Shown piece after piece: positions 51,089 through 60,184 of a stretch of DNA of 64,000 bases (the first letter of the stretch is position 1; every line of letters starts with the position of its first letter). The notes beneath the pieces are model-generated. The model searched no databases and was not told where the DNA came from. It was given only the letters and a program-made list of their open reading frames with translations. Both the position numbers and the translations under genes were made by a program. Origin of the DNA: an uncultured Bacilli bacterium (GTDB lineage Bacteria > Bacillota_I > Bacilli_A > RF39 > UBA660). The stretch lies in assembly GCA_947628895.1 (NCBI GenBank), contig CANRBS010000003.1:1325-65324 (forward strand), given 5' to 3'.

Positions 51089-54000
51089 TTATTTATTTAC
51101 TTTAAAATTTATTTCTTGTTGTACTTCATCTGCAAAAATTTCATCTTCAAAATCATGAGTTAAATTTTTAAGAGTATAATAAATATCTTGTCTTACTTTA
51201 GTACTATTTGGATAGCTTCTTCTATTAGTAACATCTACACGACACCAATAATTTTGTAAGCAATTTGGTTCTCTTTCCATTTTAGCTGCTAAATCAACTC
51301 TTGTAGATTCAGCATCTTTTACTAAAGCATCATATAATTCTTGAACATATTTATTTACATCAATACCTTTTAGATATGGTAAATTATCTTCAGTTTGTGC
51401 AAATCTAGCTTTTTTGTATTCATCAAAATTCTCATATTTGCCATTTGAAATAGTTTTAATAGCCATATTATCTGTCTTATAATTTACTTCAGTATATCCT
51501 TTTGATGGATCTTCTAGCTCATTATAAATTTTTTCTTTTACAGAATGGATATTACTATAATATTCTACATAACCATCTTGATATCCTTTATAACCAAGCA
51601 TTTCATAAGCTATCCATTTTAATGCATAAGAATCAGGTCTACCATAAGGGTTATATGGTTGATACCAGTGAGCAGTGTTAATACCTTCGCCTCCATATGA
51701 ATTAGAACCCCTTGATGCATATAAGTAAACTCCTGCATATTTCATAATTCTATTATCAATTAAGTCATATACTGTATCTAATTGCATTTTATCCCATTCT
51801 GAAGATGGTATTTGACTATAACCTGTTGTCTGACGAGCACGATATATATTACCATCATCTTTATATTTCTCTTCATTTGGATAAGAAACCTTAATACCAA
51901 TTTCAGCTTTATCAGATGAATTTAATTGTAAGAATGCTTGTGCTTCTATGTAATCTATTACATATATTGTTTCAAATACTTTTTCATAAAAATCTTGTAT
52001 TTTTTCTGGTGTATCTATTCTAGATGGATCTAAGCTTGAACCTATTTTTTCATCTGCATCAAAATGTACTGATAAATTCATAACAATATCATTTGGTCCG
52101 AATGATTGCATTAAATTACTATCAGCATAATCTTCTCCTCCAGCATCAAATCTTCTTCCATTATTTTTTAAGAATAGTCTTGCATCAATATTATGTGCTG
52201 TTTCATGAGTAAATGTATGATATGTATATTCTTGAATATCTTTATTTAATTCTTTAGCTAAGTCTTTATCAATGTAACCATCCATTAGTCCTTCTGCACT
52301 CCAGTCAATTCTATCTCCCCAAGCAACAGCTGCATTTCCATCACTAGTTTGCCAACGATTAGTTACTTCATTAAAGTTTTTATGGAATGGTTCTTCTGTT
52401 CCAACTTGTTGATATACAAGCACACCATTTTCATCATATGCATATCTCTTATCAAGATGGAAAGTATGAATATCATTAAATAACTTAGCATCCCCGAGTA
52501 TTTTATATGCTGTATTATAATAAGTACTCATTCTATCAGCATAACTCTTAACTCTTCTTTTAAATATACTTTGTTCATATTCACTTTCAGGATTTTCCAT
52601 ATAACTTCTTTGTGCTCCGATTACATATTGAACTGGAGTAGAAATTACATAAGCTGCATTTTTTGGAAGAGTTAAAATTGGTAACATCATGTCATAAGCA
52701 CGATGTGGTTTATAATTTGCATCTTCATTACTAAAATGATCCCATAAAGTATATTGTATTTCATCTTCCATTCCTTTAACTGGAAGTTCAACTAAATAAC
52801 CTTTAAATTGTTTTCTAGTCCATTCATCAAGATCTCCATCTCCAAATTCAGTTACCATATATTCTATAAATTTAGCAATAGTATCTTGTTTAGTATAACT
52901 TCCAAGAACAGTCGCATATTTTGTTCCAGTTGAAGAAGTAGCAAAATTATTATCATCACTAAAATATAATTCAATTATTTTATCTGGTGTTAATGATTTA
53001 TCAAAGCCATCCATATTAAATAACATAAAGTCATATAATTTCATTCCATCTATATCTAAATCATAGAATCTTCTAAAATAATTATACATATAAAGTGCCT
53101 TTTCTATTTTATTATTTTCTTTAACACTCTTTTCAATATAATTATTAATTATATCGTTATCTAAAGTATTTGTATAATTACTATTAGATAAGAATTTAAG
53201 AACAAATTCTTTTAATTCATTTTTTGTTGTATCATTATAAAAATCTTTATATATTCTACTATCTATAGAAGGTGTTAAAACATCTAAATTTTCAGTATAT
53301 TTTAATCCTTTTAAATAATTAGTTAAATTATTTACAACTTGTGAGTCATCATTAATTATATAATTACTATAATTATAACTAATATTTAATTCTGGAACAT
53401 AATAACTAGCTACAAAATCATATGTATTATCATAAAGTACTTTATATTCTTTATGTTCATTAGTTTTATAAACTAATTTTATTTTACTTATTTTTTTAAC
53501 ATTATCACTTGTTAAATAATTTACTATATTACCTTTTGAATCAACAGGTAAAATATGTGTAAGCTCTTTATTAATTAAATTACTATCTTTAACATTTTTT
53601 GCTATATCAATTATTTTATCAAGTTTATAATATGGCATTAATTTCATTAAATTATTATATAAATTTATATTATTTTCAGCAAATGCACTATTAGTAACAT
53701 CTTTATATTCTCTTTTCTTTTCATATTGGAATATTGGGATGTTTTCATAAGATACATTATCTAAACTCCATATTTTTTCACTAAATCCATTATCAATAAA
53801 GAATTGTTTATTAATAGCATTTTTAGTAATTTTTGTAAATCCTGAAACATTAATATCTACTTCATTTTCATCATCTACATAATAATTATTTTTACTTTCT
53901 TTAAATCCTCCAGGTCTATGATTAAATCCTGTAGTTAAACTAATATTATTTGTAAATGTATTATTGTTACCTGATGCAATATCAAATACATTTTCAAGAC

Positions 54001-60000: not shown

Positions 60001-60184
60001 AAGCATATAAATCTTTATCATATTCTAAATCAACAATAAGATTTAACTCATCATTTGATTTTAATTCATTTTTGTCAACTTTTAAACTTATACCTTCTTT
60101 AGCATTTACATTAAAAGGTAATATTATCATTAAAAATAAAATTATAAAATATTTTACTTTTCTATTTATATTATTTTTATTCAT
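51089..60184 (-). CDS. Giant surface protein: signal peptide, cohesin-like domain, TM hairpin, dockerin, ~7 repeat modules, GLUG beta-helix and M26-type (ZmpB/IgA-protease-like) zinc metalloprotease
   Basis: 3031 aa. Cohesin-like ...LNLIVDLEYDKDLYAFLANLSFDENVFEV.... TM1 about aa 178-209 and TM2 about aa 224-245. Dockerin GDSNNDGVKDYDD...DVNGDGQITITD (nt about 59294-59440). Seven modules each end (V/I/T)LK(D/T/E/N)xPx(I/V)xN. GLUG-type repeats ...GGFIGNATNTTIENSYANG.... HExxH is FTHETAHNID (nt 52193-52207), with a downstream ...GGEDYAD.... Confidence 0.8.
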   Translation of the reverse strand: MNKNNINRKVKYFIILFLMIILPFNVNAKEGISLKVDKNELKSNDELNLIVDLEYDKDLYAFLANLSFDENVFEVINTNNFQEQDEWSNIVYNEENNKFALLNKSGMVKSHLFMLKLFVKNNPVPGKTEIVLNNPTASDGKKDIEFNSTSITLTVENTSGEKPSNAYSNNVEILGNTFSILAIKPFIITGIVLIVALIIGLILININILKDKLKINDELRKKLNIIFGILLALFSIATISLVFIINSRGDSNNDGVKDYDDANKINEYLIDITNEKNNTPNKDYDVNGDGQITITDSAKQEKDTTNKTNYKVELNRVNNNNVYVAKNENANLEFSATINPNTVKIKEVYIDGKAYKVEIDKNNYKVLMKMPSTSGVYDYTITKVILTNGREINVKNLKFTVEVLKTEPKIENFNYKDGKINFNINDKDKSLKSLHIKVVEGKVNLQDIKNSKLVLDKDINIESNNISLDALLEFGKDYTILISGNYDLDTNKLDSNSNYYKDQNLYFDTITNGEVKINFITDLNNLYVSQNEKVKLYFKAEINPKTLNQKIKKIVIDNKEYDVSIDKNGNYVLEMDANSKYGEVKSKITSVILGDDTKVLSEMSISYFTLKEKPSVIDFIYHEKEERITFAVDDKDKSLSKAKIIITKIGEKESVFEHELDLNLRDFAYSVKLEQGFKYDVKITGYYDLDNDKNNNKNDFDGSLFNYELTVYAVSISHFREKTYYANKDSEVELKFNAKIVPGDNIAYINKVTINNEPYAPTHYDDGSYGVIVKSPSTAGIKEYKIDKITLDDNKITEELIYNIDVLKDKPKVENFFIDESEETPIITFDIIDEDNALKSDPGEVIVKFENQEVKKYPIKKGNNKISLTDITSSLDNGRIYTVDIKVNYDLDSSKDNGLHEHTEYLIQNHEIKIYKINLKLSDNNYYFSKEEEKPINLTATINPETSLKITAFIMKDGTLVEANYKNGAYSINLIAAKNAGEEIYNIEKVLLGEDIKVKAPLEIKIDVLKDVPYVNRVNIGEDNKTLSYELVDVDNAFKNGTITINDKLNTNNLTKDLKSKETQFIDYDFKDEETYSIKVIGSYDLDSIEGDSNNVHDNMNMYEHSFLIGGEYNFTLTDVSITDAIKENEKPIVTFTSTNTKGLKIEKVTLNDKTYSVKENNNRYEVVINDADMSFKEHEVIFNSVTLGLKTFKNNVNFNARVLSYTVLKNSPSITNINLTNNSSDKTITAKYKVNDEDYAISKLKAVLVDSTDKIIATADIPLDEATIDGESVGITLSYDKNKDGKYRVKFLADYSLSNKYTYTNQNIGENEILTQSDEIFIEAISLKKSKYVNKNVKNYEISYDVYVGENIKTNNNKSYTRLSIVTVNGKNYIPNGESTDKPRIYKGKIGITTPSESGVLTLSASRVQLELNSYYDKQNDYYSVPKKDIEIEVLKDKPKIENLKVKEENYDEGSVTFEFDVKLDDSAKENDESFIKGSVILGEEEHEFKRNHNTIKFEHVNKDTDLELIFKASYDLDTDYFKEKDGIDENEFTNEEIYKTKYGLFITNKYENMIISDGVAISKNNNKYFEKNEKVKLNFKVSDDLDELSLKKVFIGNKEYNLTKKDDVYEFTIDGYNTFGEKEITISDITLSNGKKIKLNNPYTIKFEILKDIPKITNYKYEVKNDKINITSILVDSDASIDGVANVKITTEDGTILIDESYKNTFTINLEDKVSRYYVLITANYDRDLDVKNDSENYNKDTKLLDEIISLEINDVEFKDINDVNLYKVTSKDGKEEVTLINKVSKSEIDSNKESYFVEINMDNLKSIRVNIKAVKEENGHLIFVLDCMHSSIRNTNSSDLIIDFGEINDGSAINETHPKEAFEALLKKLKSNQEVTLTKNYDASMFNDDSRYYVEEYSSTLNGNGFTIKNLNKPLFNKIDHATIKNIKFEDVTMPSIANDGNGTGTIANNSNESTIENVMVHNYYKANNEGRVGIFFGNATNTTIKNSAADSFNIYAGWANLQQIGGFIGNATNTTIENSYANGKIPGGWNFRSGLIGIANGCTIKNNIIKVEINTGMGLENVFDIASGNNNTFTNNISLTTGFNHRPGGFKESKNNYYVDDENEVDINVSGFTKITKNAINKQFFIDNGFSEKIWSLDNVSYENIPIFQYEKKREYKDVTNSAFAENNINLYNNLMKLMPYYKLDKIIDIAKNVKDSNLINKELTHILPVDSKGNIVNYLTSDNVKKISKIKLVYKTNEHKEYKVLYDNTYDFVASYYVPELNISYNYSNYIINDDSQVVNNLTNYLKGLKYTENLDVLTPSIDSRIYKDFYNDTTKNELKEFVLKFLSNSNYTNTLDNDIINNYIEKSVKENNKIEKALYMYNYFRRFYDLDIDGMKLYDFMLFNMDGFDKSLTPDKIIELYFSDDNNFATSSTGTKYATVLGSYTKQDTIAKFIEYMVTEFGDGDLDEWTRKQFKGYLVELPVKGMEDEIQYTLWDHFSNEDANYKPHRAYDMMLPILTLPKNAAYVISTPVQYVIGAQRSYMENPESEYEQSIFKRRVKSYADRMSTYYNTAYKILGDAKLFNDIHTFHLDKRYAYDENGVLVYQQVGTEEPFHKNFNEVTNRWQTSDGNAAVAWGDRIDWSAEGLMDGYIDKDLAKELNKDIQEYTYHTFTHETAHNIDARLFLKNNGRRFDAGGEDYADSNLMQSFGPNDIVMNLSVHFDADEKIGSSLDPSRIDTPEKIQDFYEKVFETIYVIDYIEAQAFLQLNSSDKAEIGIKVSYPNEEKYKDDGNIYRARQTTGYSQIPSSEWDKMQLDTVYDLIDNRIMKYAGVYLYASRGSNSYGGEGINTAHWYQPYNPYGRPDSYALKWIAYEMLGYKGYQDGYVEYYSNIHSVKEKIYNELEDPSKGYTEVNYKTDNMAIKTISNGKYENFDEYKKARFAQTEDNLPYLKGIDVNKYVQELYDALVKDAESTRVDLAAKMEREPNCLQNYWCRVDVTNRRSYPNSTKVRQDIYYTLKNLTHDFEDEIFADEVQQEINFKVNK

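Follow-up and report, generated by a model that had tools for sequence, protein, structure and literature searches.

Within a 64,000-nucleotide stretch of DNA from an uncultured Bacilli bacterium (contig CANRBS010000003.1 of assembly GCA_947628895.1; hereafter the window), one open reading frame (ORF) runs uninterrupted from an ATG start through 3031 codons and a stop at 51089..60184 (-). The DNA has 23% G+C, and a 9-kb ORF in such A+T-rich DNA is, judged by its length and composition, no chance product; an identical copy of the 3031-residue protein is called on two public metagenome contigs. From its N-terminus the protein comprises a signal peptide, a cohesin, two transmembrane helices (TM1 and TM2), a two-loop dockerin, seven units of ~200 residues, an M26_N/GLUG region and a full-length M26_C domain. 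These domain matches identify the product as a surface zinc protease of the IgA1-protease family M26, and we describe it here as a genuine, well-conserved variant of the M26 surface proteases whose N-terminal anchor appears to be rebuilt on a cohesin–dockerin pair. An initial annotation of the window, made from its letters, had proposed the signal peptide, cohesin, two transmembrane helices, dockerin, seven modules and an HETAH motif; sequence, hydropathy and motif searches place every one of them where it had been claimed.

Apart from Glug, the domains pass the Pfam gathering scores only when the protein is scanned in segments. A scan of the whole protein returned Glug alone, together with a sub-threshold dockerin (18.1 bits), and left the cohesin, M26_N and M26_C undetected. 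On segments, Peptidase_M26_C scores 137.4 bits (cut-off 22) over profile positions 2-792 of 792, corresponding to aa 2258-3017, the M26 catalytic domain (51134..53413 (-)). Preceding it is the M26 N-terminal region (aa 1764-2257; 53414..54895 (-)), in which Peptidase_M26_N matches at ~aa 1891-1965 with 48.4 bits (cut-off 27.7), covering profile positions 174-249 only, and a second M26_N stretch at aa 1759-1837 (profile positions 41-115) reaches 22 bits. With aa 1880-3031 as query, ~1040 residues align to the IgA1 protease structures 7uvk, 7uvl, 6xja, 6xjb and 7jgj (E 5e-45 to 6e-37), the alignment starting at ~aa 1894. The M26 architecture that the initial annotation had recognised is borne out by these profiles and structures. 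Its GLUG-repeat β-helix region is borne out in part: GLUG is present, as a single Pfam Glug unit (aa 2006-2029, 24.3 bits on its segment, cut-off 20.5), and the repeat character is weaker than had been stated.

The putative zinc-binding and catalytic motif, HETAH (His2660, Glu2661, His2664; 52193..52207 (-)), aligns with HEMTH of the IgA1 protease, and HExxH is present across the M26-bearing relatives. Glu2684 (52133..52135 (-)), which lies in GGEDYAD 24 residues past His2660, aligns with the Glu of GPEFYA in 7uvk and is the candidate third zinc ligand, the role of the aligned Glu in the M26 family. The NCBIfam ZmpB and ZmpC models score 136.5 and 131.9 bits, far under their cut-off of 3000, and on these scores the protease is a relative, not a member, of the exact ZmpB/ZmpC subfamilies. 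Pfam scans of the whole protein and of the repeat segment gave no match to a G5 domain, and the protease has no LPxTG. It ends directly after M26_C; among its relatives, some (P0013, P0016, P0018, P0024-P0028) extend past M26 into a second, C-terminal region that is GLUG-like and repeat-rich. A homologue search with the catalytic domain alone returned fragments only.

The N-terminal anchor begins with a signal peptide (aa 1-28; 60101..60184 (-)), read from hydropathy, that has a K/R-rich n-region, a hydrophobic core within the segment aa 10-28, and the putative cleavage site VNA↓KE, where Ala28 is invariant in the family alignment. The cohesin occupies aa 29-155 (59720..60100 (-)) and scores 26.3 bits on its segment against Pfam Cohesin (cut-off 24.1); its relatives score 30-48 bits, up to 47.9. 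A flexible linker of ~25 residues leads from the cohesin to TM1 (~aa 180-209; 59558..59647 (-)), which is separated by the K/R-rich loop KDKLKINDELRKK from TM2 (~aa 223-247; 59444..59518 (-)). Both helices are read from hydropathy, with peaks at aa 176-211 and 222-248 and Kyte-Doolittle 19-residue means up to 3.3 and 2.7, from AlphaFold2 (AF2) helices at 184-213 and 217-247, and from their conserved position. The dockerin follows at once (aa 249-307; 59264..59440 (-)), with two Ca2+-loop/helix repeats, DSNNDGVKDYDD (aa 250) and DVNGDGQITITD (aa 285), and a segment score of 26.1 bits against Pfam Dockerin_1 (cut-off 22.9). Its loops lie at 250-261 and 285-296, and AF2 places helices at 259-269 and 294-307.

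AF2 modelling of aa 1-320 with an alignment of 33 family N-termini (A1) gave a mean predicted local distance difference test (pLDDT) score of 82.9 and a predicted template-modelling score (pTM) of 0.74, with a β-sandwich at 31-155 and pLDDT mostly >90 in the cohesin region. Foldseek matched this model best to the Clostridium perfringens non-cellulosomal cohesins 2jh2, 2w1n and 2vo8 (E 5e-9, TM-score 0.75), followed by many cellulosomal cohesins and, at weaker scores, by reeler and CLIPPER β-sandwiches. Segment profiles, family conservation and the predicted fold together uphold the cohesin and the dockerin of the initial annotation as real. A pTM of 0.74 is too high for bodies of ~125, 65 and 60 residues that are placed independently of one another; it would imply a defined position of the cohesin with respect to the hairpin and the dockerin, and suggests a compact cis arrangement. 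Since the hydrophobic pair is conserved, predicted to be helical and joined by a loop whose net charge is positive in 72% of the unique members of the family, an out-in-out hairpin is the natural reading, with TM1 running outside to inside, TM2 inside to outside, and cohesin and dockerin both extracellular, as the initial annotation had also proposed.

Neither the protease, by Pfam, nor the other scanned ORFs of the window contains a detectable carbohydrate-binding module (CBM) or glycoside hydrolase (GH) domain, and the single cohesin sets the protein apart from multi-cohesin scaffoldins. On its domain content, the protease is not a cellulosomal protein.

Between the dockerin and the catalytic head lies a stalk of seven tandem units of ~200 residues (aa 308-1763; 54896..59263 (-)), delimited from its repeats, an AF2 model of unit 1 and Foldseek. 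The units end in the motif (V/I/T)LKxxPxhxN at aa 403, 609, 806, 1008, 1208, 1435 and 1651 and align pairwise at 16-36% identity, so that by sequence they are clearly homologous, if divergent. They match no Pfam family. A profile built for the unit found 739 full units in 145 proteins, with up to 23 in a protein; the largest relatives reach 5-6.7 thousand residues. For unit 1, AF2 with a 41-sequence alignment predicted two β-sandwiches in fixed orientation (pLDDT 95.1, pTM 0.85), and Foldseek returned tandem pairs of immunoglobulin (Ig)- or fibronectin type III (FN3)-like domains (SiiE, titin, ICAM) with no close relative. The paired sandwiches of each unit join at the VLKDxPxIxN motif. The prediction for each unit is thus two rigidly paired Ig-like domains, which would give a stalk of 14 domains. 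At ~4 nm per Ig-like domain, by our estimate, this corresponds to a rod of ~50 nm, in keeping with the long stalk that had been annotated. Each unit also carries near-invariant acidic motifs in alignment A2, namely DxD within ND(K/E)D and YDLD(S/T) at the unit end; that these form inter-domain Ca2+ sites, by analogy with SiiE or cadherins, is speculation.

The N-terminal arrangement is a conserved cassette. A database homologue search gave 53 relatives at 25-65% identity, nearly all of them proteins of 2-5 thousand residues in which the signal peptide is followed by just two more hydrophobic segments, at ~175-250. Scans of ten diverse N-termini put Cohesin above the Pfam cut-off in eight and Dockerin_1 likewise in eight, and in alignment A1 the Asp/Asn residues of the dockerin Ca2+ loops and several core positions of the cohesin are invariant. 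Searching 1.84 billion representatives with the A1 profile yielded 131 clusters at 50% identity (E<=1e-30), and a search with the N-terminal 320 residues alone, which selects candidates by words, returned three fragments only. The full cassette of signal peptide, cohesin, TM1, TM2 and dockerin is found in 118 pooled proteins of up to 6693 residues, always at the N-terminus, with one cohesin match each and one dockerin match in all but three; across the family the dockerin begins a median of 8 residues past the hydrophobic core of TM2. Most full-length cassette proteins end in M26. A few (P0044, P0046, P0047, P0051, P0053 and P0108) carry other payloads, which appear Ig-like and non-catalytic.

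The hairpin itself, which the initial annotation had regarded as unusual, is a known hallmark of M26 proteases, and what is new is what flanks it, the cohesin and the dockerin. Streptococcal zinc metalloproteases (Zmps) have a signal peptide, an LPXTG motif, two transmembrane segments, a putative second signal-peptidase site, repeats and then the protease, and the hairpin thus belongs to their standard N-terminal plan (PMC3518915). In these enzymes the second transmembrane segment may serve as a second signal peptide, followed by variable repeats and the protease (PMC3518915, PMC7939560).

A distant branch of the cassette family carries the LPXTG as well. In 9 of 129 unique cassette proteins an LPHTG, LPKTG, LPYTG or LPQTG lies exactly between the cohesin and TM1 and is followed by a K-rich loop; LPXTG, TM1 and loop together have the make-up of a complete internal cell-wall sorting signal. 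Three proteins that were checked (P0147, P0162 and P0163) show the order Cohesin (42, 25 and 35 bits), LPXTG, TM1, loop, TM2, Dockerin (28, 41 and 35 bits), units and M26. In this branch TM2 is shorter and, read by eye, ends in a conserved G[TS][VI][YF]A[AV] (VEAA, VYAA, VFAA), 8-10 residues before the dockerin, a motif of the classic Ala-x-Ala type of signal peptidase I. Were both sites used (LPXTG and VYA↓A), the cohesin would be linked to the wall and the dockerin-stalk-protease would be a separate chain, with the cohesin–dockerin bond as the sole link between them. Because the modules are paired nearly strictly one to one, and because of these LPXTG-bearing relatives, we read the cohesin and the dockerin as probable partners of each other, in cis or in trans; the branch with LPXTG and VYA↓A is the strongest argument, if an indirect one, for cognate pairing. 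The branch to which the window protease belongs lacks both LPXTG and a clear signal-peptidase site.

We give about an even chance to an arrangement in which the window protease is an uncleaved, hairpin-anchored M26 enzyme with an extracellular clasp between its cohesin and its dockerin. On this account, Sec export and removal of the signal peptide would leave the cohesin outside; TM1 would cross inwards, the short K/R-rich loop would remain cytoplasmic, and TM2 would cross outwards, so that the dockerin would start ~3-8 residues past the membrane. The 14-Ig-domain rod, ~50 nm long, would carry the GLUG/M26 head through and beyond the cell wall. Because the window protease lacks a sortase motif and shows no clear site for signal peptidase, its hairpin is most likely left uncut. 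Tethered by a flexible linker of ~25 residues, the cohesin could bind the adjacent dockerin, of its own chain or of a neighbouring copy, forming a Ca2+-dependent extracellular clasp over the hairpin that would reinforce the anchor of a very long, shear-exposed molecule. Such an arrangement would have derived from the general M26 N-terminal plan. In the distant relatives, a wall-linked cohesin and a dockerin-protease of separate chain would be joined solely by the cohesin–dockerin bond.

Several points weigh against this reading. The contact between cohesin and dockerin is one that we infer, none having been observed, and the two modules of the window protease barely exceed their cut-offs (26.3 and 26.1 bits) and are lost in the whole-protein scan. 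Scaffoldins that carry both module types usually have cohesins and dockerins of differing specificity, so that self-pairing is no given. Topology and signal peptide are readings of hydropathy, AF2 helices and conservation. Non-cleavage rests on the crude -3/-1 rule, which 10 of 105 unique members pass at the junction of TM2 and dockerin; two later, looser regular-expression or heuristic tests for signal-peptidase sites after TM2 were too permissive to discriminate and were discarded. The mechanical role of the clasp is speculation.

The junction bears directly on an alternative in which the chain is cut there, either at TM2 working as a second signal peptide or close by through another protease, and the freed dockerin-stalk-protease is recaptured non-covalently by the cohesin that TM1 tethers to the membrane. 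One gene would then yield receptor and enzyme, and the enzyme could be shed through loss of Ca2+ or by competition. Such a secretion route, with an S2 site after the second transmembrane segment, has been proposed for the streptococcal Zmps (PMC3518915), the distant relatives with LPXTG before TM1 and the conserved VYA↓A-like motif after TM2 fit it, and at the junction in the window protease, INS-R-G↓D, the residues in positions -3 and -1 are small. TM2 of the window branch is long, however, with ~25 hydrophobic residues that polar and basic residues follow directly (INSRG↓DSNNDG), and the few members that satisfy the strict -3/-1 rule are set against many with K, R or Q at -1. For the window protease we consider cleavage unlikely. 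Still less do we favour a reading without any binding between the cohesin-like and the dockerin-like module, the one being, for instance, a β-sandwich for a wall polymer or host ligand and the other an EF-hand-like Ca2+ module that stabilises the stalk base. The marginal scores of both modules and the resemblance of the cohesin fold to reeler and CLIPPER sandwiches, if at weaker scores, speak for it, and we know of few experimental tests of function among non-cellulosomal cohesins and dockerins. Yet the occurrence of both families on either side of the hairpin in more than 100 proteins, and the branch with LPXTG and signal-peptidase sites, where nothing else would join the two products, are hard to explain otherwise, and we hold this reading very unlikely.

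Pairing between chains is a possible, if improbable, arrangement. The dockerin would bind the cohesin of another copy or of a paralogue, head to tail as the initial annotation had it, giving chains or a two-dimensional array, or the modules would engage other cohesin and dockerin proteins such as the products of 974-2557 and 2569-4755. Both modules are predicted to lie outside the membrane, several metagenome-assembled genomes (MAGs) hold two or more cassette genes, and the window encodes, besides the protease, a membrane-anchored cohesin-like protein and an SH3-dockerin protein. The former, at 974-2557 (-), combines a signal peptide and a Cadherin-like domain with a C-terminal transmembrane segment and a long K/E-rich cytoplasmic tail; it had been annotated as a cohesin protein, of which a partial N-terminal match remains (28.7 bits on its segment, profile positions 8-76 of 139). 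The latter had been given as a dockerin hydrolase at 2569-4740; the ORF is 2569-4755 (-) and contains, besides a Cadherin-like domain, a pair of SH3_3 domains and, at the C-terminus, Dockerin_1 (35 bits), and Pfam found no catalytic domain in it, hydrolase or other. Hidden Markov models (HMMs) built from the cohesins and dockerins of the protease family match neither protein, and the two look, on sequence, like a second, separate cohesin–dockerin pair. Docking of the protease with these neighbours, as the initial annotation had suggested, was rejected as the primary reading since the family HMMs miss both; the pairs are apparently orthogonal. Against pairing in trans more generally stand the flexible ~25-residue linker and the very high local concentration, both of which favour cis, the compact cis arrangement that the single-chain AF2 model suggests, and the one-to-one stoichiometry, with three dockerin exceptions among the 118 proteins, which docking to other scaffolds would not need.

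To place the cassette among hosts, we scanned one genome per GTDB species (185,579 species) for the cassette motif [NKD]KF[AG][LIM][IL]NKxG and obtained 98 relatives. Gut MAGs from rabbit ('Lapin'), which are labelled uncultured Bacilli or Clostridia, account for 78 of the 80 loci that were kept, and several of these MAGs carry two cassette copies. In 241 million metagenome records of the Joint Genome Institute (JGI), the motif scan found one relative, which lies on a contig from European hare. Gut assemblies of rabbit and hare thus supply nearly all of the nearest relatives; the motif selects a close subfamily, and the lagomorph association holds for that subfamily and is uncorrected for sampling. 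More distant members occur elsewhere, among them the 'Bacilli bacterium' MAG protein MCI8568660.1 and one from JGI sample 3300006139. The only two genome loci that are not from 'Lapin' MAGs, L002 (CAYTGK010000008.1) and L055 (CAZASP010000049.1), belong to study SRP314395; one of them is labelled 'uncultured Muribaculaceae', which is unlikely for a low-G+C, Firmicutes-type gene.

Family membership suggests that the window protease targets immunoglobulins or other glycoproteins, as had been proposed for it. M26 enzymes also cleave O-glycoproteins other than IgA (ZmpC). The IgA of leporids comes in 15 subclasses, which differ mostly in the hinge (PMC10435986; PMC6082545, PMC9247829), and this diversity has been attributed to pressure from bacterial proteases (PMC10435986, PMC6082545, PMC9247829); PMC10435986 names no candidate protease of the rabbit gut. 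By analogy with the IgA1 proteases, a lagomorph-associated radiation of this family is a candidate source of the proteases behind the hinge diversity. The full proposal would be that a radiation of lagomorph-gut M26 enzymes cuts rabbit and hare IgA hinges and has driven the leporid IgA expansion, its members being displayed on a single-gene 'split anchor' in which a dockerin-tipped enzyme is kept in place by an N-terminal cohesin that is itself membrane-held or attached to the wall by sortase. In this complete form we regard it as doubtful, indeed quite unlikely. Among known IgA systems, that of rabbits and hares is the most complex, and for proteases acting on the rabbit IgA subclasses the genes of this family are direct candidates.

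Putative signals for expression precede the protease gene. A ribosome-binding site, GGAAAGGA (60195..60202 (-)), would lie 10 nt before the ATG, and a promoter-like site at 60272..60301 (-), a consensus match, consists of TTGTCA, an 18-nt spacer and TGnTATAAT with an extended -10. A co-directional 70-aa ORF (60494-60706 (-)), ~300 nt upstream of the gene, has a weak HTH_3 (XRE-type) match; it is missing from the corresponding position in L001, the locus of the closest homologue. Downstream lies metG, and the protease gene looks monocistronic. No T-box, other RNA or tRNA was found between the protease gene and metG, where Rfam gave 0 matches at gathering thresholds.

Other genes of the window include those for a sortase, an LtaS-like sulfatase, a GT4 enzyme (MraY/TagO-like) and a T2SSE ATPase; on this evidence the organism is a walled Gram-positive bacterium. 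The sortase-domain protein (543 aa; 18353-19984 (-)) adjoins a tandem duplication at 20668-29664 (-), in which a two-gene cassette occurs twice (1335 aa + 272 aa; 1182 aa + 225 aa) with DNA copies that are 73-96% identical. The large proteins of this duplication have no Pfam match and could serve as substrates of the sortase, for instance as pilins or adhesins. A secretion ATPase of the T2SSE type (13901-15421) stands in a run of small co-directional ORFs lacking Pfam matches (12186-17080 (-)), perhaps a cluster of the type IV pilus, Com or Tad-like kind. A large serine recombinase with Resolvase, Recombinase and Zn_ribbon_recom domains (37623-39242 (-)) borders the sole block of plus-strand genes, 39852-46063 (+), at a change in sign of the GC skew, possibly the edge of an integrated element.

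If the proposal of a split anchor is true, its logic would explain the long-puzzling N-terminal LPXTG of the streptococcal IgA1 proteases. In these pneumococcal virulence factors an oddly placed LPXTG is followed by two transmembrane segments, and how the wall-linked stub and the enzyme would hold together has never been clear. The cassette family, which has an explicit receptor–ligand pair on either side of the M26 hairpin, with and without LPXTG, offers a testable model. Cohesin and dockerin would here be a self-contained surface anchor within one polypeptide, far from cellulosomes, and possibly a display cassette. No paper joining cohesin, dockerin and M26/Zmp was found in the literature that could be searched.

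The closest of the known systems are the streptococcal and Gemella M26 proteases (IgA1 protease/ZmpA, ZmpB, ZmpC and ZmpD), which have the same catalytic machinery of M26_N, GLUG and M26_C with HExxH and Glu, and the same plan of a signal peptide, a short N-terminal ectodomain, two transmembrane segments, variable repeats and the protease. The window protease differs in lacking LPXTG and G5, in having its cohesin where those enzymes have the LPXTG stub, with a dockerin right after TM2, in its repeats, which are seven double Ig-like units of ~200 residues outside Pfam, and in its low identity to the solved enzymes; its hosts are uncultured low-G+C gut Firmicutes. The non-cellulosomal pairs of C. 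perfringens (mu-toxin/NagJ and NanJ; 2jh2, 2w1n, 2vo8) provide the best structural match to the cohesin and likewise serve enzymes whose target is the host and not cellulose. There, however, the modules sit on different secreted enzymes and form soluble complexes, whereas here they sit on one chain, with a membrane hairpin between them and a protease as cargo.

The anchoring scaffoldins of cellulosomes (SdbA, OlpB, ScaE) also use a surface-held cohesin that captures a dockerin-bearing enzyme or scaffold, and ScaE is anchored by sortase, as the LPXTG branch of the cassette family would be. In the window protease, by contrast, receptor and ligand are part of one polypeptide with a single cohesin, anchoring is through a transmembrane hairpin, and CBM, S-layer homology (SLH) and glycoside hydrolase domains are absent. 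The giant Ig-repeat adhesins (SiiE and other BIg/Big-repeat proteins) likewise present a tandem Ig-like stalk, and the BIg pairs of SiiE are the top Foldseek match to the stalk unit, although with TM-scores <=0.48 and no match by sequence profile; the stalk described here would instead carry a protease, and would be exported by Sec rather than by a type I secretion system (T1SS).

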